Positions 48,047 through 60,902 of a stretch of DNA of 64,000 nucleotides are shown one piece after another (position 1 is the first letter of the stretch; every line of letters starts with the position of its first letter). Location of the stretch: the NCBI RefSeq assembly GCF_045037415.1, contig NZ_CP173440.1; one strand, 5' to 3'. This stretch comes from Escherichia coli. Lineage in GTDB: Bacteria > Pseudomonadota > Gammaproteobacteria > Enterobacterales > Enterobacteriaceae. The notes beneath the pieces were generated by a model that worked only from the letters and a program-made list of their open reading frames with translations, was not told the origin of the DNA and searched no databases. Position numbers and translations under genes: made by a program.

Positions 48047-49109
48047 GCCAGGCCAGCGGCGTATGGCGGTGTCTGTCCAGAGACGGGAGTTCTTAAGTTG
48101 GTAGACGGTGATCCATTTTTCTGACCATTCATAAAATTTCTGGCATAGCAGCTTCTACAGCAAACTTTCGGTCACCAATTAAATCCCCTGGATTTTACCC
48201 ATACCTGCTCTTCCCTGGAATGTCGTTAATATCCACGGTATCAGGTCAGAGCTGTAACGACCAGCAGCGCCAGTGGAAATAGTCCGGCCAGTACCGGCTC
48301 CTTACCCCGGATTGATGTCTACTGTATGCGATAAATTTGGGAAAAACTGGCGATGGCCATTCTTCTGATTCTGATCGCCGGCAAGCGTGTCAGGTAGCAA
48401 AAGAGCGAACGTAAGACAACATACCCTTGAGGGTCCTGACCTTCAACGTGCCCGACCCGGCCCCCGCCGCGCGGACGAAAAAAAGAGAAAAAATAAAAAA
48501 AAAGAAAAAAAGAATATGCCGAAAATGTGCACAGTCGCGACCCACGCAGAGCGTGGCGCTCCGGGGCAAAGGCTTTGCAGGACTATAAGGCATGTTGTCT
48601 TACGTTTTGAGTGTGATGGTTACGAGCCCACCAGCTTTCATGAATTGTCCCGCCGGGTGGACTGCTATAAAGTGCATACCAGCACTGCAGCCCCTGCCGG
48701 TGATGAAGAATAATTCCGTTCAGGCGAGTATTGAGCAAGACCTTTACTACGTATTAAAACCTGGTACTCCGGGATGACGATGCCTGAGGTGCTTACCACC
48801 GGGAGAAGCAATTCGTTTATGGCGCCAGCAGCTGGTACCTGGCAGAGTTAAGTTCTTATCGCAAAGGATGATAAAAATGAGCCATGGCAAATGTGAGCCG
48901 ACAAACACGAATGCCGCCGATTACAAGCTGTACGCGCGATTCGATGCTGGTGAAACGCTTGAAAGCGTTTTAGCCTCTCCTCCGACCACGAAGCACAATA
49001 AAGTAACTTCTGAAGGAAACATCAGGACTGAACACAGAATGTGGATAGCGTGGAGAAAGAAGCATCCCAGACCACTCTGATTATCAGTGACGATTAATAA
49101 GGATAAAAC

Positions 49110-49424
49110 ATGCGAACGACAAGTATCACCCTGTGTCTGGTTTTGGCGAGTTTTGGTGTATCCGCTAAAATCCTTGCAGACCCAGACCTTACTTACCAGG
49201 CAAATAAAACGTGTGCTAAACGAGATGAACTGGAACTGAAAGTCCCTTTAGAAGCCAATAATCCCTACTCTCCCACATGGGGTTTGGACAAGGGCATGGT
49301 GCAGGCCACAATTGACGCACTGAAAGAAAATCCAGACATCGCCCCGACTGACTCTGTAGCCTGCCAACAGGCTGCAATAAAACAGTATCGGGCTGGGCAA
49401 AAACACTACAGTAAGCTCAGGTAG
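49110..49424 (+). CDS. Small hypothetical secreted protein (predicted signal peptide)
   Basis: 104-aa ORF with N-terminal MRTTSITLCLVLASFGVSA followed by a polar mature region. Confidence 0.4.
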   Translation: MRTTSITLCLVLASFGVSAKILADPDLTYQANKTCAKRDELELKVPLEANNPYSPTWGLDKGMVQATIDALKENPDIAPTDSVACQQAAIKQYRAGQKHYSKLR

Positions 49425-49628
49425 CTGCCGTGATGCCCACCAGCTGAAACCTGTGTGTGGTATAAAAACCCCGTAGCGCTGGTGCAAAACAGACCAGCGC
49501 ATTCCAGTTCTCAATCCCCTTCTGTGATGTAGGCCCCTGTCGCATTCAGACCTGAATAACCGTGCAGGGAAACATGTCAGTAAGCCATCTGGATACAAAA
49601 ACTGGTGGTATAGCCACTTTAGCTTAAA

Positions 49629-49649
49629 GCTAATGTATGCGTACATTAG
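49629..49649. repeat. 21-bp palindrome gCTAATGTAtgcgTACATTAGt followed by a T-run; partner of 50172-50192
   Basis: Read directly; the site at 50172-50192 is its exact inverse (centre cgca versus tgcg). Confidence 0.75.
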
Positions 49650-49666
49650 TTTTAAGTTTATGTTAT

Positions 49667-50149
49667 TTACCCTTCTCCCTTCCTGGATGCCTTAACCTGG
49701 GTCTGATAGTTGCGCTTTACCCGCTCAATTTCCGCCAGAGTTGCCGCCCAGTGCAGCCCTGCGGCGTGACGATATCTGGTTGCCATTTTTTCAACGGCCT
49801 CCGGAGTGCTGTCATCGCTGCGGTGCTGCCGTCCCTTCACCCCGAAAATTTCCACTATAAGCCACTGGCTACCGGTTCTGCCGAACAAGGCCTGACACAG
49901 CCGCCTCACGGCAAGCGGGGTCAGATCCGGGTCGGGATCATACGCGATGGTGGCAAAAATAAAACGCAGCATCTCAGAGGTTTTGTAGCGTTTTACCGCT
50001 GCCGCCAGCCGGGCAGCTCTTTGCGGCGCTTCCCAGCGGTCGTCGCTGTAACCTGCCACTTCAGAGAGATAGTCCTTCTCGAGTTGTTTAGCCGTGTAGC
50101 AACGTCCCCCCAAAAACATCCGCATAGCTTCTTTCGTTTCAGCTCTCAC
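49667..50149 (-). CDS. Hypothetical protein bracketed by the two palindromes
   Basis: 160-aa ORF MRAETKEAMRMFLGGRCYTAKQLEKDYLSEVAGYSDDRWEAPQRAARLAAAVKRYK...; no family recognised. Confidence 0.45.
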   Translation of the reverse strand: MRAETKEAMRMFLGGRCYTAKQLEKDYLSEVAGYSDDRWEAPQRAARLAAAVKRYKTSEMLRFIFATIAYDPDPDLTPLAVRRLCQALFGRTGSQWLIVEIFGVKGRQHRSDDSTPEAVEKMATRYRHAAGLHWAATLAEIERVKRNYQTQVKASRKGEG

Positions 50150-50171
50150 GAATCTTGTCCTCAGCCAAAGC

Positions 50172-50192
50172 TAATGTACGCATACATTAGCA
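50172..50192. repeat. 21-bp palindrome gCTAATGTAcgcaTACATTAGc, 23 bp upstream of the 49667-50149 start codon
   Basis: Read directly. Confidence 0.75.
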
Positions 50193-51095
50193 TTAAGTAT
50201 CCGGTTCAACAAAAATCAGGAAACCGATCTGATTTAGTGCATGTGGCTGTCTCTTTTGGATTATCGCTTTTGCGTTATGGTATACAGGTTACCCCTCCCC
50301 CTCTTTTCCCGCTGGTCTACTGTAGTCGACACAAAAGACAGGAACTGCGGTATGTCCTGATAATATTGTTTGAGTTTTAATCACGAAGCAGAGGGTATCG
50401 CATACAGTAGACACAACGCAGCCAGAATAACGCTCGATGTAAAATTTAGATCGTTGTCGCCTGCAGTAGACATTCCTGGTATCGACTCTGGTGCATCCAA
50501 TACTGACCCGTTCCCGGATCATGGCAGAGCATCCAGTAGACACGGTATGGAAGGACGTCAGTCCTCACCTTTCCGTCTGTTTTGACTGTGTCGGAGACGA
50601 CGGTTGCGGTTATTGTTGATGCCTTTGGCCGTCAGGTGAATACCTGTCAGTCAGGTAACTCTGTCGTTACATTTGATGCCCGAAAATCATAATTACCACA
50701 TATTAATCCGGGCATTCCGGAAAATTGTACCTGCCTGAAGAGTATCAAACGATACCTGTCTCCCCTCCTCTGAATTATCTGCTCAGTCGAGAACCTTGAC
50801 GATCGGGTGATTCAGTTTCGGCAAATGGCAGCATGATAATGTCAGCCAACAGCGTGCTGGTGAATTTATTGTCGGGCCAGACGAATTCTGTTTGTCACTG
50901 CATACTGCATGCCGGGCAGAGGAGTGAACAACGATCGAACTGAAACAGTTGCAGCGTCGTATGGAGAAAGAATGGGTTGGTTTCAGGCGGTGCTTCGGTC
51001 GGTTTCAAACAGTGTCTGACCGACTTCTGGTAAGTTTCTCCCTTGCTGTCTGGTGATTCTGTCTTGCCCGGATTGTTGACTATTGATGATGGTGT

Positions 51096-51214: not shown

Positions 51215-51346
51215 TGTCAACGCTGGCGGGTATTCTATCATTGCTGGCGGGTGAACCATCATCGCCAGAGGGTATACCATCAACGCTAACGGGGCAATTA
51301 TCATCGCCAGAGGGTAGATTTTATCAACGCCAGCGGGTAATCTGGT
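51215..51346. repeat. Origin iterons (about six ~22-bp repeats with core CAACGCTGGCGGGTA) immediately upstream of repA
   Basis: tcaacgctggcgggtattcta / tcattgctggcgggtgaacca / tcatcgccagagggtataccat / ... / tcaacgccagcgggtaatctgg. Confidence 0.65.
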
Positions 51347-51375: not shown

Positions 51376-52260
51376 ATGGCCAATGATAACAATCAGTTAG
51401 CGCTAATTATCACTGAGCAAGATAAAAGTTCTGGTGAAGTTATACATTTGGTTCCTAACTCAAAACAGAGTATTCAACCTAAATCGCTACTGCGATTGGG
51501 GGTCTTTGTTCCGACAGTCAAGGATGGCAGCGACCCTATGGCACGAGGTCATGTCATCGATGCAACGACTGAGTTGTGTCGTCTTTCTTCTATCGCTGGA
51601 GAGGGGTACGAAAAGATTAGTATTTTTGGGCCCAGGCTTGATATGGATACGGATTTCAAAGTCTGGCTAGGGATCGTGGACACACTCGCCAACACGTTTC
51701 TTGAGCCTGATGGGACTGTTAGGGTCAATTTTATTGATTTTGCTTTCAGTTGTGGGCTTGCTACAAAACGAGTTGATTCAAGGTTAAGGAAACGTTTTAG
51801 CGACTCACTGACACGGATCCAGCACACCCATTTCCAGTTCATCAAAAACTCAACAGTAGAAGGGAAAAAAGTAAAGATCGACATGAGCCTGGTGTCTACT
51901 TCTTACTATGATGAGGGAACCGATGAGGTCATTATCAGGCCAAATCCGGATTTGAATACTCTGTATCGTGTCGACGGGAAGACCCGACTTTACTTAAAAA
52001 TATTGAAGACCCTGTCTCGAAAAGAATCAGCCCAGGCACTGTATCTTTATCTAGTTGAATTACCTGACCATTTTTATCGCATTGGATTCGACCGCTTAAG
52101 AGAACGGTTGCAGCTGACTTCACACAAAGGTGCTCAGAATGCGACGATAAAAAAAGCGTTAGAGCAACTGGATGAAGCTGGTTTTTTAAAATACACGATA
52201 GAAAAAAATCGTGGGGATTATGTACTGGTCATTCTTAGTCGAAACAAAAAAGTTACCTGA
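51376..52260 (+). CDS. repA: Iteron-binding replication initiator RepA (P1 RepA / RepFIB family)
   Basis: 294-aa product with LLRLGVFVPT, GPRLDMDTDFKVWLG, RKESAQALYLY and KKALEQLDEAGFL blocks shared with P1/RepFIB RepA. Confidence 0.8.
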   Translation: MANDNNQLALIITEQDKSSGEVIHLVPNSKQSIQPKSLLRLGVFVPTVKDGSDPMARGHVIDATTELCRLSSIAGEGYEKISIFGPRLDMDTDFKVWLGIVDTLANTFLEPDGTVRVNFIDFAFSCGLATKRVDSRLRKRFSDSLTRIQHTHFQFIKNSTVEGKKVKIDMSLVSTSYYDEGTDEVIIRPNPDLNTLYRVDGKTRLYLKILKTLSRKESAQALYLYLVELPDHFYRIGFDRLRERLQLTSHKGAQNATIKKALEQLDEAGFLKYTIEKNRGDYVLVILSRNKKVT

Positions 52261-52399: not shown

Positions 52400-53520
52400 G
52401 TTTACCCGCCAGCGTTGAGGATGACCACCAGCAGCGACCACGCTTACCCGTCAGCGTTGAGGATGGTCACTGGTATCGCCCCTGTTTACCCGCCAGCGTT
52501 GACGGTGACCACCGACAGCGGCCACGCTTACCCGCCAGCGTTGAGGATGACTACCGGCAGCGGTCCCGTTTACCCGCCAGCGTTGAGGATGACTACCGGC
52601 AGCGGTCCCGTTTACCCGCCAGCGTTGAGGATAGCCACCGTCAGCGGCCACGTTTACCCGCCAGCGTTGAGGATAGCCACCGTCAGCGGCCCCGTTTGCC
52701 CGCCAGCGTTGAGGATGAGCACCGGCAGCGGCCACGTTTACCCGCCAGCGTTGAGGATAGCCACCGTCAGCGGCCACGCTTACCCGCCAGCGTTGAGGAT
52801 AGCTACCGTCAGCGGCCACGCTTACCCGCCAGCGTTGAGGATAGCCACCGTCAGCGGCCACGTTTACCCGCCAGCGTTGAGGATAGCCACCTTCAGCGGC
52901 CACGTTTACCCGCCAGCGTTGAGGATGAGCACCGTCAGCAGCCCCGCTTACCCGCCAGCGTTGAGGATAGCCACCGTCAGCGGCCCCGTTTGCCCGCCAG
53001 CGTTGAGGATGAGCACCTGCAGCGGCCCCGCTTACCCGCCAGCGTTGAGGATGAGCACCGTCAGCAGCCCCGCTTACCCGCCAACGTTGAGGATAAGCAC
53101 CGTCAGCGCCCCCGTTTGCCCGCCAGCGTTGAGGATGAGCACCGGTAGCGGATCCGTTCACCCGCCAGCGTTGAGGATAAGCACCGTCAGCGGTCACGTT
53201 TACCCGCCAGCGTTGAGGATAAGCACCGTCAGCGGTCACGTTTACCCGCCAGCGTTGAGGATGAGCGCCGTCAGTGGATCCGTTTACCCGCCAGCGTTGA
53301 GGATAAGCACCGTCAGCGGTCACGTTTAACCGCCAGCGTTGAGGATGAGCGCCGTCAGTGGATCCGTTTACCCGCCAGCGTTGAGGATAAGCACCGTCAG
53401 CGGTCACGTTTAACCGCCAGCGTTGAGGATGAGCACCGGCAGCGGCCCTGTTTGCCCGCCAGCGTTGAGGATGAGCACCGGTAGCGGATCCGTTTACCCG
53501 CCAGCGTTGAGAATGATTCC
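52400..53520. repeat. Tandem array of ~26 imperfect 42-bp repeats (TTACCCGCCAGCGTTGAGGAT + variable 21 bp); core is the inverse of the origin iteron
   Basis: Periodicity and unit read directly; CCCGCCAGCGTTGA is the reverse complement of the upstream iteron core TCAACGCTGGCGGG. Confidence 0.85.
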
Positions 53521-53702
53521 CCTCCACCGACCCCGGTTACACGCCAGCTTTGACACTACCAGCGACTACAGTCGACATTAAAATCGCCGTGACCTGCTGC
53601 AGCGCGATATACGCCCGGCTGGCATCAAAAGAATTTTAACCAAACAGCACACATCCAGCGGTACAGGAGGCCAGGTTTAACCCGGGGCAGAAACAGATTG
53701 AT

Positions 53703-54770
53703 CTATAGCGACTTGTTAGGATCATTTAGCAAAAACCAATCCCGAAAGGCCTGCTTGCTATCGAAGGTGGGAAGGTTATGTATGGACAAGTTCCAGTTAA
53801 TGATTTTCACTATAAAAGACAAAAATTCAATTTCAGCCTCATTCAGTACACCCTCTCCTTTTTTCCGTATATAGAAGTCATACCATCGTTCGTAGGCGGC
53901 AACATTGATAGATTCAGATGCTTCCAGAAGCCGGGGGATATAATAAACCAGTTCTTCAAAGGCAATACTGCCTTGAGGGATATCAGAACGGCTCAGGCGA
54001 CAAAGAAGGTTAATCGTGGCTCGAAGGTGATGCCACTGCTGTGCCGGGGAGGATGGGAGGGCGTTCATGCTTATCGGAAGTTCATGAGGAATTAAAGCAA
54101 GGATCTGATTTCCACTGGTAGACAGCTCACGCCGGTACTGGTGTAGAGTATGGTGTTTAACCTTCTTCATCATAGGATGGTAGATCCATTTTTTCGCTTC
54201 CTCAGAAACGAAAAGTAACTTTTCTATCGCATCCATCATCTTTATGCCTTCTCCACTCTCACGATATGGAGCGATGATACTTTCAATCCGAACGGCATCG
54301 ATCTCCACCAGCGCCAGCTGGTCTGTTTGCGCTAACAGGTCTGGATTGGGCTGGATATCCTCCGACGTATCATTAATAAATATCCCGATTGTCGTATCGT
54401 TACATATCCCTGTGAGGTCAGCATTAAGGCCACAAACAATCCCACCACCAGCGAGATTTTTGAGGTTAACTATCCCTTTCTCCTTACCCTGCAGAAGATG
54501 AGGGAGAGCAAGGTATTTTTTTTCCTGTATTTTCACCTTTATGTATTTTTTTATATGTTGTAGTGTGAGCTCACTACAAACCCCTTTTACTTCTGTGCTG
54601 TGGCTAAAATGCCATTTTTTATTTTGACCCTGTTTGGCAATCAGGGAGGTCCCACAGATGAGGCAGATACAGTTACACGAAAGCCCATTTTCAACGCTGG
54701 CGATATCAACAATTTTATTTGAATCCGTATCAAATCCAAACGGGATCCATTTTTGTGCATTACGTCGCAT
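53703..54770 (-). CDS. Hypothetical protein with CoiA-like N-terminal zinc-finger/nuclease-related motif
   Basis: 355-aa ORF; N-terminus LSCNCICLICGTSLIAKQGQNKKWHFSHS resembles the CoiA family CxxC...HFxH signature. Confidence 0.45.
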   Translation of the reverse strand: MRRNAQKWIPFGFDTDSNKIVDIASVENGLSCNCICLICGTSLIAKQGQNKKWHFSHSTEVKGVCSELTLQHIKKYIKVKIQEKKYLALPHLLQGKEKGIVNLKNLAGGGIVCGLNADLTGICNDTTIGIFINDTSEDIQPNPDLLAQTDQLALVEIDAVRIESIIAPYRESGEGIKMMDAIEKLLFVSEEAKKWIYHPMMKKVKHHTLHQYRRELSTSGNQILALIPHELPISMNALPSSPAQQWHHLRATINLLCRLSRSDIPQGSIAFEELVYYIPRLLEASESINVAAYERWYDFYIRKKGEGVLNEAEIEFLSFIVKIINWNLSIHNLPTFDSKQAFRDWFLLNDPNKSL

Positions 54771-54855
54771 GTATATTCCTCGTTAAAAATGAGTAAAGGA
54801 ATTCTACATCATCCGTTTTTATCAAACCTGGAATAACAGCGTCTAATTACATTAT

Positions 54856-55110
54856 TCATATCTCATCGGGGATGAGATGCCACATGGAAGCAGGTATTTT
54901 GTCATAGTTTTTTTTCATGTAGATCTCAGCCCTGCGGTGATCATAAGCTCCGTTCAGGCTGGTTATCTTATTCATATCCCCACCTTCATCATTTAATTTA
55001 TCCAGGATACGCTCAAACACTCGGTCAAGGGTTTCAGTCGTACTGCACTTTCTGAACTTCAGGAGATAGGTTTCTCTCAGGCTACTGTGCGCATTTGGGC
55101 TTTTCAACAA
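54856..55110 (-). CDS. Small hypothetical protein
   Basis: 84-aa ORF, no recognisable family. Confidence 0.35.
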   Translation of the reverse strand: MLKSPNAHSSLRETYLLKFRKCSTTETLDRVFERILDKLNDEGGDMNKITSLNGAYDHRRAEIYMKKNYDKIPASMWHLIPDEI

Positions 55111-55259
55111 CGACGCTCCGGGGCATGTTCAAAAACACTGGCTATTTTCGAAAACAGTAAACGAAGTTCCACGCACAGGCAAGAGAAGCCATTTGATTAA
55201 TTCACGTTCTGCCTGGATTTGAAAAAAAACAATGTTACTATACTGGCTATAAAAACAGT

Positions 55260-57190
55260 GTGCGCCGGGGAACCGGTTAGAGATCAAGGGGTGAAAGTCC
55301 CCGACCATTGAAGGACCAGCAATCCACAAGGTCCCCGAGTCATGCGTTGCATACCGCGAGGTATGGGGCGAAGCGTTGACAGGGGTGTTGACAGGCCAGC
55401 CATTGAGCCACGAAATGTATATTAAATTACCGGGTGCCGACGTTGTACTGTTAACGGAAGGCAACATCATAGGGTGCGATACTGCGAGTGCCACATGGAC
55501 CCGGCGGGGTCTGAGACCCTGGCATGTCAATACGATCTCTACGCGGGAACCGGGAGATCTCCCCTCTGACCATCTGCCAGTGTCGGAGATGGCCCGCACC
55601 GGGAAGACGAGGAGTCATAGCCGGTGATGTACGGAGAGGAGAAGTCGGACTCGCTCATAGTAGCGGCGAAGCAGGCGAACAACCCGAAAGGAGCGGAGTC
55701 AGTGGAGCGAAGGAGCGGGGCCAAGGGGAACGCGGAACAGCCACACATGCGCCGGACACAGAGCCGGGAAAGCATGTCACAGAGGCTGTCACGCGTGCGG
55801 GAAGCTGCGAAGCAGCGGAAGAAAGAACGGTTTACAGCATTGTTCCACCTGCTGACAGTCGAAGCACTGGAAGCCGCATTCCTCTCCCTGAGCAGGAAAG
55901 CGGCCGCCGGAGTGGATGGCATCAGGTGGATGGACTACGCCGGAAACATGAAGAACAACATAACAGATCTGCACCGGAGGCTACATCAGGGCAGCTACAG
56001 GGCGCAGCCCGGCAGGCGTCACTACATCCCAAAAGCGGATGGAAAACAACGCCCGCTCGGCATCGCCTCGCTGGAGGACAAGATCGTCCAGTATGCGCTG
56101 GTGAAAATCCTGAACGCAGTCTATGAAAACGACTTTATGGGGTTCTCATACGGGTTCAGACCCGGGCGAAGCCAGCACGATGCACTGGACGCACTGGCCA
56201 CAGGGCTGGTACGCACTAACGTAAACTGGGTACTGGATGCCGACATCAGTCAGTTCTTCGACAGGGTGAGCCACGAATGGCTGATCAGGTTCACAGAGCA
56301 TCGGATCGGCGACCGGAGGGTAATCAGGCTCATACGTAAGTGGCTCACAGCCGGGACGTCGGAGGAGGGTCAATGGCGAGCAACGGAGGAAGGCACCCCA
56401 CAGGGTGCGGTCATCTCACCGCTGCTGGCAAACATATACCTCCACTACGTCTTCGATCTGTGGGCGCATCAGTGGCGACGTCGCTATGCCACAGGCAATG
56501 TGGTAATGGTCAGATACGCCGATGACATCGTCATCGGGTTCGACAAACGATACGATGCCCGGCGCTTCCGTATAGCCATGCAGCGCAAACTGAGGGAGTT
56601 CGGACTCACGGTTCACCCGGAGAAAACCCGTCTGATGGAGTTCGGCCGCTTCGCTGCCGAAAACCGTGCCATCAGGGGAAAAGGCAAACCAGAAACGTTC
56701 AACTTCCTCGGGTTCACGCACATCAGCGGGAAAGATCGCAACGGCAGGTTCATGCTGATACGAAAGACCCGCCGGGATCGGATGACGGCAACTCTGAAAG
56801 CCATCAAAGACGGTCTGCGAAGGCGCTGGCATTACTCAATCCCCGAACAGGGAAAATGGCTCAGGAGAGTGGTTCAGGGATACCTGAACTATCACTCGGT
56901 ACCGGGCAACTTCCCCACCATGCAGAAGTTCAGGACACACGTAACAAACCTCTGGCGCCGGGCGCTCAGGCGCAGGAGCCAGAAGGATGATACGACCTGG
57001 ACGAAAGCAAACAAACTGGCAGCCGCATGGCTACCAAGGGTTCGGGTTCTTCATCCATGGCCTGTGGAGCGGTTCACCGCCAGACACCCGAGGCAGGAGC
57101 CCGGTGCGTAAATCGCGCACGCCGGGATCTGTGCGGGGGGTATCCGGTAACGGGTATCCCTACCGCGACATCAGTGAAAAGACATGAGAT
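55260..57190 (+). mobile_element. Group II intron (starts GTGCGCC) encoding an RT/maturase; 3' end approximate (within ~30 bp)
   Basis: 5' GTGCGCC at 55260; intron-encoded protein with RT domains 0-7 and X; ~80 nt follow the RT stop, as expected for domains V-VI. Confidence 0.7.
55624..57111 (+). CDS. Group II intron-encoded reverse transcriptase/maturase, no endonuclease domain; N-terminal start uncertain
   Basis: AAGVDG, PLGIASLEDKIVQ, SYGFRPGRSQHDAL, DADISQFFDRVSHEWL, PQGAVISPLLANIYL and YADDIVI motifs. Confidence 0.9.
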   Translation: MMYGEEKSDSLIVAAKQANNPKGAESVERRSGAKGNAEQPHMRRTQSRESMSQRLSRVREAAKQRKKERFTALFHLLTVEALEAAFLSLSRKAAAGVDGIRWMDYAGNMKNNITDLHRRLHQGSYRAQPGRRHYIPKADGKQRPLGIASLEDKIVQYALVKILNAVYENDFMGFSYGFRPGRSQHDALDALATGLVRTNVNWVLDADISQFFDRVSHEWLIRFTEHRIGDRRVIRLIRKWLTAGTSEEGQWRATEEGTPQGAVISPLLANIYLHYVFDLWAHQWRRRYATGNVVMVRYADDIVIGFDKRYDARRFRIAMQRKLREFGLTVHPEKTRLMEFGRFAAENRAIRGKGKPETFNFLGFTHISGKDRNGRFMLIRKTRRDRMTATLKAIKDGLRRRWHYSIPEQGKWLRRVVQGYLNYHSVPGNFPTMQKFRTHVTNLWRRALRRRSQKDDTTWTKANKLAAAWLPRVRVLHPWPVERFTARHPRQEPGA

Positions 57191-57196
57191 CTTCCC

Positions 57197-58333
57197 ATGA
57201 CAGATAAAACCAAACTGGTTGCTATCTCACGAACCGATGACATAAGTGCTCTGGATGCACTCAAGCTGTTGCGGTTTCGCCGGTACAATACGGCCAGAAG
57301 TCAGTTAAGGGTCACGAGTGTCTGGTCTGCATGGTGCGCCAGGCACGGTCTGACCCCCTTCCCGGTCACAGCGGTTGATGTCGAGCGCTATATTAATGGG
57401 CTGAATGGATCCGTTAAAATGGCGACTATCTCTCATTTTATTGCATGCCTTTCAAGCGTTAACAGCAGCCTGGGTTTTCCAGACTTCCGCAACGTTCTGA
57501 TAAAAGCACTGGTTCAGGTATGGCGGGCGCGGGAGAATGAGAAAAAAATCGTCACCGGTCAGGCCCTTCCATTTCTTATATCCGATCTCAATATTCTTCG
57601 CCGGTCGCTGCATAAAAGCGACGACCTGAGAGACATACGGGACCTTGCAATGATATGGGTTGGGTTTGAAACCCTGCTGCGTAACGTGGAAATTCGAAGG
57701 ATTAAAACCGGCGACCTGAAATGGCAAAATGACACGTCCTGTTACCTTCTGGATGTCATGCGGACCAAGACAAGCCTTTCAAGTAACCTGACATTTCAGC
57801 TCTCACCACAATGCAGTCAGCATGTCAGACGGTTGATTGAGACGGTGGAATACACCGATACCGAAACCTTCGGGCACCGTTTTCTTTTTCAGCCTGTAAA
57901 CATCCATACGAACCGATATTTCCCGTCCACCAGCAGTAAGCTATCCCGGGGTAAATCCATAGACAGGATGCTGGTCAAAGCAGGATTCAGTGAGGGGTTA
58001 CTGACGCAGTTACAGAATGAATCAAAGGTATCACGGGAAGATGTTGGAATGCTGTCCTCTAATTCACTGAACCAGGCATTTGCACGCCTCTGGGGGATTG
58101 CCGGGAAGGTCAGCGACAGTAACCGACAGTCCGGGCGGTACCGGACATGGACAGGACACAGTGTGCGTGTGGGGGGAGCCATAGAGCTGTTTAAGGCCGG
58201 GTACTCACTGGAAAAGATTACCGAGATGGGGAACTGGTCTGATCCAAAGATGGTCTTCCGTTATATCCGTGGATATCTTGCCAGTGAAAAAGCCATGGTA
58301 AGCTTTATGCGTAATCATCTGGACGACATATAG
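57197..58333 (+). CDS. Cre-like tyrosine site-specific recombinase
   Basis: 378-aa product; C-terminus GHSVRVGGAIELFKAGYSLEKITEMGNWSDPKMVFRYIR parallels the Cre catalytic H-x-x-R...W...Y region. Confidence 0.6.
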   Translation: MTDKTKLVAISRTDDISALDALKLLRFRRYNTARSQLRVTSVWSAWCARHGLTPFPVTAVDVERYINGLNGSVKMATISHFIACLSSVNSSLGFPDFRNVLIKALVQVWRARENEKKIVTGQALPFLISDLNILRRSLHKSDDLRDIRDLAMIWVGFETLLRNVEIRRIKTGDLKWQNDTSCYLLDVMRTKTSLSSNLTFQLSPQCSQHVRRLIETVEYTDTETFGHRFLFQPVNIHTNRYFPSTSSKLSRGKSIDRMLVKAGFSEGLLTQLQNESKVSREDVGMLSSNSLNQAFARLWGIAGKVSDSNRQSGRYRTWTGHSVRVGGAIELFKAGYSLEKITEMGNWSDPKMVFRYIRGYLASEKAMVSFMRNHLDDI

Positions 58334-59191: not shown

Positions 59192-59946
59192 TTTTCCTCC
59201 AGAGGCTTTAATCTTAATTTGACCACGTTAACCAGTTTCATTACTCCCGCCTCATCCGGTACGAAAATGTAACGACATCTCGGCCATGTCGCGTGTGTAA
59301 ATATCTTACCAGCGGTGTTGATATTCAGAGGCATAAGCCTTTCAGTCTTACTCAACGGCATTTTCTCTATCGGGATCAACCCTGACTTAAAACTTTTTAT
59401 CATTAAGTCGAGAGGGGTTTTACAATCTTTATTGCTCATCGTTTCTGTGTAACGGATCATCCCGGCAATCGTTACCTGTATCGTTCCTATATCAGATTCG
59501 AATTTCGGCAGCACCGGCCAGTAAGGAATTTCAAAATCCACACTGGTAAGCGCCTGTTCGTAACCCTGCTCATTTGTTTCTGCAACCGTTTTAAGGCCTG
59601 GAAACCGGGCGTGCATAAATTTGATAATCTTTACCACATTGGGCGTGCTGGCCTGACGCTGATATATCTCTGGCAGCCATGTGGACGTGGTGGCCCATGT
59701 CGTGGTGCATGCATAAGTTTTTTGCTCCATATGCCATAAAATAGAGGTGTCAGCCAGGAAGTGATGAACAGTCAACAGCTCGGCCAGCAGCCGATCTTCA
59801 TCTGGATGTGTTATGGCATTTTTGAAACAGACCTGTACACGAAAACGTTCTTTTGCAGACAGAAAAGTGTTTCCCCTACTGACGGCCACTTTGTATAACC
59901 TCCTGGCCGGATCAGCTTCACAAATCCCGGTTAAAATCCGGCTCAT
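59188..59946 (-). CDS. Hypothetical protein (252 aa), translationally coupled to the upstream gene
   Basis: Start overlaps the stop of 59943-60902 by 4 bp. Confidence 0.45.
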   Translation of the reverse strand: MSRILTGICEADPARRLYKVAVSRGNTFLSAKERFRVQVCFKNAITHPDEDRLLAELLTVHHFLADTSILWHMEQKTYACTTTWATTSTWLPEIYQRQASTPNVVKIIKFMHARFPGLKTVAETNEQGYEQALTSVDFEIPYWPVLPKFESDIGTIQVTIAGMIRYTETMSNKDCKTPLDLMIKSFKSGLIPIEKMPLSKTERLMPLNINTAGKIFTHATWPRCRYIFVPDEAGVMKLVNVVKLRLKPLEEK

Positions 59947-60902
59947 TTTGACTCCCTGATGACTTCCACCAGCCCTATACGGGGCAGGACAGAACGATAT
60001 TTTTCATTAAAATCGCCGCGCTTCTGCCTTTCACCTTTTACGTAATTTTTTAACGGATTAAACCGGCCCGGTTCGCTGAACAAAATTAATGGTAAAGGCG
60101 CGCGAAAGTTGAGTTTGTACGGCCCATGAACATCATCTGGATCTTCAGGACTGGTGTACCGGATATTGACGTTAACAGCCGGAAAGTTACTTTCCCGGAT
60201 AAGCCGAAATTTTCTCAAATTTTCATCGTCATGACTCACTTCATCATTGAGCAACGACAGCATCATGATTTCTTCGGTTCGTTCCTGTTTCAGCCGTTTA
60301 ACATCCTGTTTTGTCAGACTGATATCCGGCTGGAGCTCAGTTATCTCCCTGCGTAAGCGGTCGATAACCGTTTCCAGCCGGGTAAATTTATGAATGACAG
60401 GGATTTGCCAGGTGAACCCCAGGGAGCGAATTTGCTCAGTAACGATCCGGATATTACGGGACACCTGTAAAGTCACCAGCCACGGGTAAACCTGGTGCAG
60501 AATTTCTGACCGGGAGTCCTGGTAATGAGTGATAGCTTTTACAGCATCAGCAAATTTGTCACGAAGCCGGTTGATTTCACCCACCAGCGACATCACCTGA
60601 TCATGATTGTTTCTGACCACAACGAACCCGGGGTATTTTCGGGTGATTTTGGTTGAATAATGCTCATCCCTGACATGGACTTTATCAACCCGCTGCTGCC
60701 GGTAAATATCCACCAGGGTGTCGACGTCGGGTACCGAATGAGTCACATTGATTTCCTGTGGCGGATTCAACTCCTCAACACTACGGGGCTCCGGGAGCGA
60801 GGCAAGGTAAGATGAGCCGATATCGCTGTGACGGAGTAAACTGTGCAGCTCACCGAGTTTGCGTAGTTGCTCTTCGTTGTAATGGGCAAAGTCAGTATTC
60901 AT
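59943..60902 (-). CDS. Hypothetical protein with weak Tus-like (replication terminus-binding) similarity
   Basis: 319-aa product; C-terminal blocks APLPLILFSE and YRSVLPRIGLVEV resemble Tus PTPLIALIN and LRLIIPRLHLY; from memory, not searched. Confidence 0.4.
   Translation of the reverse strand: MNTDFAHYNEEQLRKLGELHSLLRHSDIGSSYLASLPEPRSVEELNPPQEINVTHSVPDVDTLVDIYRQQRVDKVHVRDEHYSTKITRKYPGFVVVRNNHDQVMSLVGEINRLRDKFADAVKAITHYQDSRSEILHQVYPWLVTLQVSRNIRIVTEQIRSLGFTWQIPVIHKFTRLETVIDRLRREITELQPDISLTKQDVKRLKQERTEEIMMLSLLNDEVSHDDENLRKFRLIRESNFPAVNVNIRYTSPEDPDDVHGPYKLNFRAPLPLILFSEPGRFNPLKNYVKGERQKRGDFNEKYRSVLPRIGLVEVIRESK

Follow-up and report, generated by a model that had tools for sequence, protein, structure and literature searches.

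The gene orf355 encodes a 355-amino-acid (aa) protein on the 64,000-nucleotide (nt) stretch of Escherichia coli contig NZ_CP173440.1 that we analyzed (here, the window), which belongs to an IncHI1B(pNDM-MAR)/IncFIB-type conjugative plasmid of the Klebsiella pneumoniae type. It follows an 84-aa open reading frame (ORF) on the same strand and lies between a repeat array next to the replication gene repA and a group II intron; beyond the intron come a tyrosine recombinase gene and, farther out, a gene for a Tus-like protein. An earlier note on this DNA had predicted both ORFs and had the order of array, gene, and intron right (coordinates are in Table 1). Positions 53500 to 55300 match pEBSI041-1, and many records like it, at 99.9% identity, and RefSeq records at that identity carry the same annotation of orf355 and the 84-aa ORF.

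We find that orf355 is a real, conserved, and uncharacterized gene, an accessory part of the backbone in IncHI-type conjugative plasmids. The ribosome-binding site, GAGGAA, sits 7 nt 5′ of the ATG. The ratio of nonsynonymous to synonymous substitution (dN/dS) is 0.065 to 0.22 against alleles with 82 to 83% protein identity and 0.10 among IncHI1-type alleles of its orthologs; purifying selection acts on the gene. A tblastn search of PLSDB (72,556 plasmids) found it in 2805 records, at no less than 80% coverage in 2502 of these. The carriers include IncHI1B/pNDM-MAR hybrid resistance plasmids, pLVPK-like Klebsiella plasmids, IncHI2 carriers of mcr-1, and the IncHI1 plasmids R27 and pHCM1 of Salmonella Typhi; word-index protein searches with the product returned close Klebsiella alleles only. 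The protein is a variant on a known plan, a zinc finger joined to a PD-(D/E)xK nuclease fold, in which the site has decayed and the C-terminal domain is new.

A zinc finger and a nuclease fold that has lost most of its catalytic residues

The N terminus carries the motif C36-L-I-C39 ... H54-F-S-H57, with C32, C34, and C65 close by. The earlier note had read this as a CoiA-type CxxC...HFxH motif, and profile searches bear it out. Pfam CoiA_N (PF25164) matches residues 33 to 59 of orf355 at E 9.8e-6 and 25.4 bits, 0.9 bit short of the cut-off of 26.3; it also matches 32 of 32 relatives (E <= 0.01; best 8.7e-10), and in a separate scan 6 of 10 relatives scored above the cut-off. C36, C39, H57, and C65 are invariant across 110 relatives. 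Judged from these matches, the N terminus is a real CoiA_N-type zinc finger, beyond chance. CoiA_N was the sole library match; the NCBIfam, PADLOC, and PHROGs libraries gave none for orf355.

An AlphaFold2 (AF2) model built from the 110-sequence alignment reaches a per-residue confidence (pLDDT) above 90 over residues 1 to 210, with zinc-finger hairpins, a helix at 69-84, strands at 86-133 and 152-158, helices at 159-187, and a strand at 193-197; modeled from the single sequence, orf355 gives a pLDDT of only 37. Compared by Foldseek with BFVD, the model had five matches with E values between 1e-6 and 4e-4, among them a viral "Competence protein," and further down came PD-(D/E)xK, RecB, VRR-NUC, and RecU entries. 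The best 50 PDB matches were almost all PD-(D/E)xK nucleases, Bax1 included, none of them significant (E >0.2). A lack of structural similarity, which the earlier note had named as fatal to its proposal, is not what we see: the orf355 model resembles PD-(D/E)xK nucleases.

Sequence comparison points the same way. A minority of relatives keep a full signature, consisting of E..H in the first helix, an E, "PD," "IEIxVTH," and a K. An hhalign comparison of the IncHI group with these intact-motif relatives gave a probability of 99.9% and E 3.6e-33 across residues 9 to 207, and because the match covers this range, the homology runs through the nuclease core. Searches of PDB sequences with the query, the 110-sequence profile, and the intact-motif profile found nothing significant; with the last of these, the top two matches were Bax1 endonucleases, aligned on the motif, at a nonsignificant E of 0.19 and 0.39, and one relative matched NCBIfam Bax1 at 3.6e-4. 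Thus the PD...IEI...K segment of the intact-motif relatives aligns to that of the XPB-associated, Bax1-type PD-(D/E)xK endonucleases (PDB 6p66, 6p4o, 8gy8), but the scores are not significant (E 0.2 to 0.4), there is no XPB partner, and orf355 itself lacks the motif. Taking profile and model together, residues ~66 to 207 of orf355 are homologous to the restriction-endonuclease-like (PD-(D/E)xK) core, with its alpha-beta-beta-beta-alpha-beta layout.

The catalytic residues are a different matter. The catalytic Glu of strand beta3 has given way to Phe (F131 in orf355) in each of the eight IncHI-type proteins; among 102 sequences of the wider family, the position is Tyr or Phe in 73 and Glu in 12. 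N133 and E137 replace the Asp and Arg of relatives. D118 is the sole residue of the catalytic signature left in orf355, and the close relative P0023 has Pro there. The signature E...PD...(D/E)xK is therefore absent from orf355. With Phe standing for the beta3 Glu and, D118 apart, the rest of the signature gone, the label "nuclease" is doubtful for orf355; of the earlier claim of a nuclease, the fold and the homology to the PD-(D/E)xK core stand, but the catalytic residues are lost.

Is the protein a CoiA? Bona fide CoiA proteins have, behind the finger, a helix of the pattern "ES..H...K," and they also have an "ExQ" strand. CoiA and orf355 share an N-terminal CoiA_N-type finger, then a restriction-endonuclease-like core, then a C-terminal extension without a signature. 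However, the CoiA nuclease domain, PF06054, had no match in the query (E <= 1), in 32 relatives (E <= 0.01), or in 10 intact-motif relatives (E <= 0.1), and the C-terminal domains are unrelated. CoiA is a single-stranded DNA endonuclease that resolves transformation D-loops in Bacillota, with an Asp in beta2 and a Glu in beta3 as its catalytic residues (bioRxiv 10.1101/2024.02.06.579203); by that standard the orf355 site is not intact, keeping D118 but having F131 for the Glu. With PF06054 unmatched in the query and all 42 relatives scanned, and with the beta3 Glu absent, the proposed CoiA family membership falls, and by these sequence comparisons we do not count orf355 as a CoiA family member. 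The earlier note had already leaned away from a competence role; it is likewise not expected here, the gene being on an enterobacterial conjugative plasmid and not in a competence regulon.

One IncHI2 plasmid does carry a PGAP annotation "competence protein CoiA family protein." On this plasmid (L005, 5001-5543), an IS100 insertion cuts the ortholog and leaves an N-terminal fragment. The CoiA name depends on this truncation, since it was given to the truncated fragment, and we do not take it as independent evidence.

The rest of the protein has no such pedigree. Pfam searches with the isolated C-terminal domains of four relatives matched nothing, and the helical domain of the IncHI proteins is an orphan of ~150 residues, without detectable relatives.

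hha, the recombinase block, and the neighboring replicon

The 84-aa partner had been left unnamed in the earlier note. It is present beside orf355, as described there, and its identity is Hha/YmoA: it matches Pfam HHA at 52.6 bits (cut-off 25) over residues 18 to 78. Its score for the NCBIfam Hha subfamily, 59.8, is under the cut-off of 90, so that the protein is a member of the Hha/YmoA family and not an Hha equivalog. It is 50% identical to the Hha of IncHI2 plasmids. PADLOC 2.0 had no match for this ORF either. Nothing resembling a promoter or a terminator turned up in the 85-nt spacer between the two genes, and its length is shared by three diverged lineages of Klebsiella/Enterobacter; judged from this layout, orf355 is probably cotranscribed with hha in the window plasmid. 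A two-gene unit of this general kind is known in Hha/YmoA with TomB/YmoB, where, as here, a small Hha-family gene and a second gene share a strand. Unlike orf355, TomB is encoded upstream of hha and is unrelated; here a 355-aa zinc-finger protein gene lies downstream, and any functional tie is hypothetical.

Table 1. Features of the orf355 region (positions in the window; residues are those of the orf355 protein)
Feature	Position	Strand	Description
repA	51376-52260	convergent with orf355	Rep3 family
Iteron-like array	52400-53516		42 bp x 26.6; downstream of repA, adjoins orf355 only in IncHI1B lineages
orf355	53703-54770	minus	355 aa, ATG start, RefSeq WP_032720864 "hypothetical protein"; CoiA_N finger, degenerate PD-(D/E)xK-like core, and orphan helical C-terminal domain
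IPFG beta-hairpin and zinc finger	residues 9-65, 54576-54746	minus	C32, C34, C36, C39, H54, H57, C65; AF2 pLDDT >90
Restriction-endonuclease-like core	residues 66-200, 54171-54575	minus	predicted: helix a1 69-84, strands 86-89, 119-123 (D118 before it), 126-133, and 152-158, then W195-x-Y-H198-P199
Helical C-terminal domain	residues 205-355, 53706-54158	minus	pLDDT ~55; no family match; in the place taken by a C-terminal zinc ribbon in the wider family
Recombination breakpoint	54230-54260		inside orf355, near codon 177
hha-orf355 spacer	54771-54855	minus	85 nt; holds the orf355 ribosome-binding site
hha/YmoA-family gene	54856-55110	minus	84 aa, TTG start, WP_004186931 "Hha/YmoA family nucleoid-associated regulatory protein"
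hha upstream remainder	55111-55259	minus	149 nt; the hha end of the divergent region between the integrase gene and hha
Group II intron	55260-57169	plus	1910 nt; ltrA 55624-57111; limits from intron-less plasmids; context only, outside the gene pair
Tyrosine recombinase	57197-58333	plus	divergent from hha; equivalent of R27 R0183, conserved neighbor
Tus-like replication-terminus-binding protein gene	59943-60902	minus	outer end of the tus-x-x-int-hha-orf block

Orthologs at 32 to 35% identity occur in IncHI2 and IncHI1 plasmids, R27 and pHCM1 included. In both plasmid groups, tus is followed by two or three small ORFs, the tyrosine recombinase, the divergent hha, and then the ORF; Klebsiella/Enterobacter relatives without the intron have the same block and the same spacer, and hha followed by the ORF is found in a metagenomic relative as well. 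Thus, the deeper conserved context is hha, recombinase, and tus, across IncHI1, IncHI2, and IncHI1B. The R27 protein and its IncHI2 equivalent (WP_001232452 and WP_001232449, both hypothetical proteins) are full-length orthologs that match orf355 in domain order and in their int-hha-orf context. They differ from orf355 in having a longer hha spacer or an IS1-RepFIA insertion, in having no native replicon adjacent, and in keeping D133 and R137.

In the window, the intron is on the integrase strand and ends 27 nt before the ATG of the integrase; on its other side, 149 nt separate it from the start of hha. Sitting in the integrase-hha intergenic region, it may part hha from some of its original promoter, and expression of the integrase may hinge on intron splicing.

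By coordinates and gene order, the R27 ortholog (154290-155363) is R0176, flanked by insB/insA (R0177/R0178), RepFIA (R0179), hha (R0182), and the recombinase R0183 (159617-160798). The published R27 transcriptome gives R0176 a value of 154 at 25°C, against 807 at 37°C (-5.24-fold), and hha is also biased to 37°C (-2.47-fold) (PMC7366339). R0176 is among the strongest 37°C-biased genes of R27. A literature query for "R0176" alone returned catalog numbers only, and in the literature on IncHI1B and Hha we found no functional study.

The earlier note had suggested that orf355 might act in plasmid replication. Taken as a role at the adjacent RepHI1B replicon and iteron array, in replication or in the control of copy number, this seems improbable to us. 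A RepB-family replicon does border orf355 in three Klebsiella/Enterobacter lineages, members of the wider family lie beside rep genes on Arsenophonus and Flagellatimonas plasmids, and the C-terminal half of the protein diverges in step with Rep. Alignment of the window with K. pneumoniae p607-1 shows 100% identity between 55200 and ~54250, then an abrupt drop to ~62% through the rest of the ORF and beyond; for the proteins, identity is 99% over the first 177 residues, 67% in the C-terminal half, and 40% for Rep. With pNDM-1-EC12 the corresponding values are 87% for the N-terminal half, 78% for the C-terminal half, and 87% for Rep. By this comparison, the orf355 allele of the window is a chimeric protein relative to that of p607-1. 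The codivergence, however, is accounted for by physical linkage to the replicon and one crossover inside the gene, and mosaicism by itself is no proof of functional coupling to replication.

The arrangement of the replicon also argues against such a role. The expected order of repA, array, and ORF is kept in Klebsiella/Enterobacter IncHI1B-type plasmids, the only ones with a RepB-family replicon beside the ORF, but the module is inverted between two Klebsiella lineages, so that in the window it is the 42-bp array that lies toward the ORF, and in p607-1 the origin-type 21-bp iterons (L027; 7243-7343 and 10010-11095, against 51222-51282 and 52400-53516 in the window, where three 21-bp repeats lie upstream of repA). 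No native replicon is adjacent in IncHI1 or IncHI2: in IncHI2, the ortholog is followed by a TerY/kinase/phosphatase cluster and the ter cluster, and in R27-like IncHI1 plasmids the only replicon nearby is an IS1-borne RepFIA (repE/incC), inserted as an IS1-RepFIA-IS1 block between hha and R0176 (L021, 3174-7001; also L003). Finally, a deletion effect on plasmid stability, proposed as a check, is addressed for R27 by published work. In the R27 deletion study, only deletion 16 destabilized the plasmid, the cause being the RepFIA incC repeats, and deletion 15 left stability in E. coli unchanged (PMC4853401). R0176 falls within deletion 15. With replicon linkage limited to IncHI1B-type plasmids, in either orientation, and R27 stability unaffected, the suggestion is not upheld; orf355 is an ordinary unknown and not a replication factor.

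Two further features of the replicon side may be recorded here. The array is open in several frames at 52415-53527 (ORFs of 304, 358, and 150 aa), and the RefSeq "hypothetical protein" over it (WP_164484378, pEBSI041-1) is almost certainly a spurious call on repeats. Just upstream of the repA region, both strands of 49100-50600 carry long, overlapping ORFs whose translations are odd and of low complexity; the stretch may be noncoding or a structured RNA.

The fixed neighbor in all IncHI lineages is instead the tyrosine recombinase, with tus in the same block, and one can envision orf355 as a DNA-binding accessory to that recombinase, the two working with Tus in a module for the terminus or for multimer resolution. 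On plasmids, where its neighbors have more of a maintenance character than in chromosomal loci, the wider family offers some parallels: the family gene is directly downstream of a tyrosine recombinase gene on Shewanella MOBH plasmids and on Vibrio coralliilyticus p380, and on a Salmonella plasmid the gene string opens with a serine resolvase. In addition, the intact-motif relative P0126 ends, at residues 246 to 320, in a domain like RstB of CTX phage (phrog_929, 2.5e-9; Pfam CTX_RstB, 23.5 bits, under the cut-off). In chromosomal loci, however, only 2 of 146 neighboring ORFs are Phage_integrase, so we rejected a general integrase association of the family, seen though it is on several plasmids. 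In R27, the eight ORFs of deletion 16, hha and R0183 included, were deleted singly without explaining the instability, and neither the single deletion of R0183 or hha nor deletion 15 affected stability (PMC4853401). We regard a recombinase factor as a long shot.

The wider family and a possible role in conflict

An exhaustive HMMER search for the family that shares the CoiA_N finger yielded 1794 cluster representatives at E <= 1e-3. Proteins of this wider family are ~270 to 320 aa long and have the first ~210 residues in common with orf355, including IPFG, the Cys/His cluster, P90, D118, and K-x-W-x-Y-H-P at 193-199; weak Pfam matches to DUF7828 and DUF7830 were seen as well. Most end in a Top1/ligase-type zinc ribbon and reside in defense islands, whereas the IncHI form ends in the ~150-residue helical domain and occupies a fixed plasmid backbone.

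A scan of representative genomes gave 49 loci, mostly in marine Gammaproteobacteria. Neighbors were counted from the 35 chromosomal or metagenome-assembled loci, as ORFs within 3 kb (146 in all), and defense-island genes dominate: ResIII (8), AEP-TOTE helicase (5), HipA (4), SNF2 (4), SMC_N (4), AAA_21 (4), GmrSD (2), NERD (2), ThsB TIR (2), and HsdM (2), with two further ResIII outside the count (one a type III Res with an RE_endonuc domain, one an AEP-TOTE). Fic is also among these conflict-system neighbors. In one type III restriction-modification island, an SMC-like ATPase gene is directly upstream, and on a Serratia plasmid the family gene sits amid Abi, TrlF, and UvrD-type genes. Such surroundings suggest that orf355 might serve in conflict, in defense against phages or plasmids or in counterdefense, as an active nuclease or a sensor with a noncanonical site of D118, K193, and H198. 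D118, K193, W195, H198, and P199 are conserved family-wide, and the IncHI2 gene abuts the TerY/kinase/phosphatase cluster.

We hold this role to be unlikely for orf355. PADLOC 2.0 found no match for orf355, only a weak DruB match in 5 of 32 relatives (best 8.5e-4), and the 50,697 records of the INPHARED phage collection contain no homolog of the orf355 family. The neighbors of the wider family vary, with no fixed partner, and residence in defense islands may only mirror the cargo regions of mobile elements. The IncHI subgroup has moreover lost R137 and R200 (R137 is kept in 5 of 8 IncHI-group sequences), and one member has lost D118.

Two neighborhood patterns in the wider family stand apart from orf355. 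At five Vibrionaceae loci (L035, L037, L043, L052, and L057), the family gene and the gene for an AEP-TOTE primase-helicase of ~780 aa are divergent, with a constant gap of ~151 nt (151 to 166 nt), and the pair may be a two-gene conflict module. On plasmids of Shewanella, Serratia, and Photobacterium (L015, L017, and L023), a DUF2913-family gene lies within ~2 kb of the family gene, with Tus or H-NS near in two of the three; the Photobacterium neighbors include H-NS and ParAB.

A proposed DNA-binding nuclease derivative expressed with hha

What, then, does orf355 do? The reading we favor, tentatively and at a little under an even chance, is that it encodes a noncatalytic nuclease derivative that binds DNA or a DNA structure and is expressed with hha, with a bias to 37°C. 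The product comes from a family combining a zinc finger with a PD-(D/E)xK nuclease in the architecture shared by CoiA; its catalytic signature has decayed to D118, and the C-terminal zinc ribbon has given way to a private helical domain. We imagine that the finger, together with the defunct nuclease fold, most likely recognizes DNA or a DNA structure with no cutting, while the C-terminal domain may contact a partner. The gene would belong to the nonconjugative part of the plasmid program expressed at 37°C, in an accessory backbone role that can be dispensed with for stability in the laboratory.

Several observations weigh against this picture. The wider family conserves D118, R137, K193, H198, and R200, which could form a noncanonical active site, and orf355 retains D118, K193, and H198 of these. 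The C-terminal domain, where a partner would bind, is modeled at low confidence. Cotranscription with hha is a poorer fit elsewhere: the IncHI2 spacer between hha and the ortholog is 360 nt, and in R27 the IS1-RepFIA-IS1 block splits the two genes. No hha lies close to two relatives that share this C-terminal domain, namely, P0010, on a metagenomic contig with an integrase nearby, and P0023, on a Salmonella MOBF plasmid behind a resolvase, a 552-aa ORF, an NTPase, and a DUF6933 gene. The linkage to hha may thus be mere backbone synteny.

A more specific proposal is that orf355 is a dedicated partner of the plasmid Hha, a third, DNA-targeting part of IncHI silencing and thermoregulation by Hha and H-NS, in which an exchangeable C-terminal domain fits the protein to its own replicon or partners. 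It has little probability in our estimation.

Recognizing the CoiA/Bax1-like descent of orf355 corrects two tempting labels, "competence nuclease" and "replication factor." The wider family of ~1,800 representatives, resident in defense islands, is itself uncharacterized. The gene is spread through clinically important resistance plasmids and is labeled "hypothetical" throughout; a decayed CoiA/Bax1-like zinc-finger nuclease derivative beside hha would give its study a concrete starting hypothesis, that of DNA binding with 37°C-biased expression.

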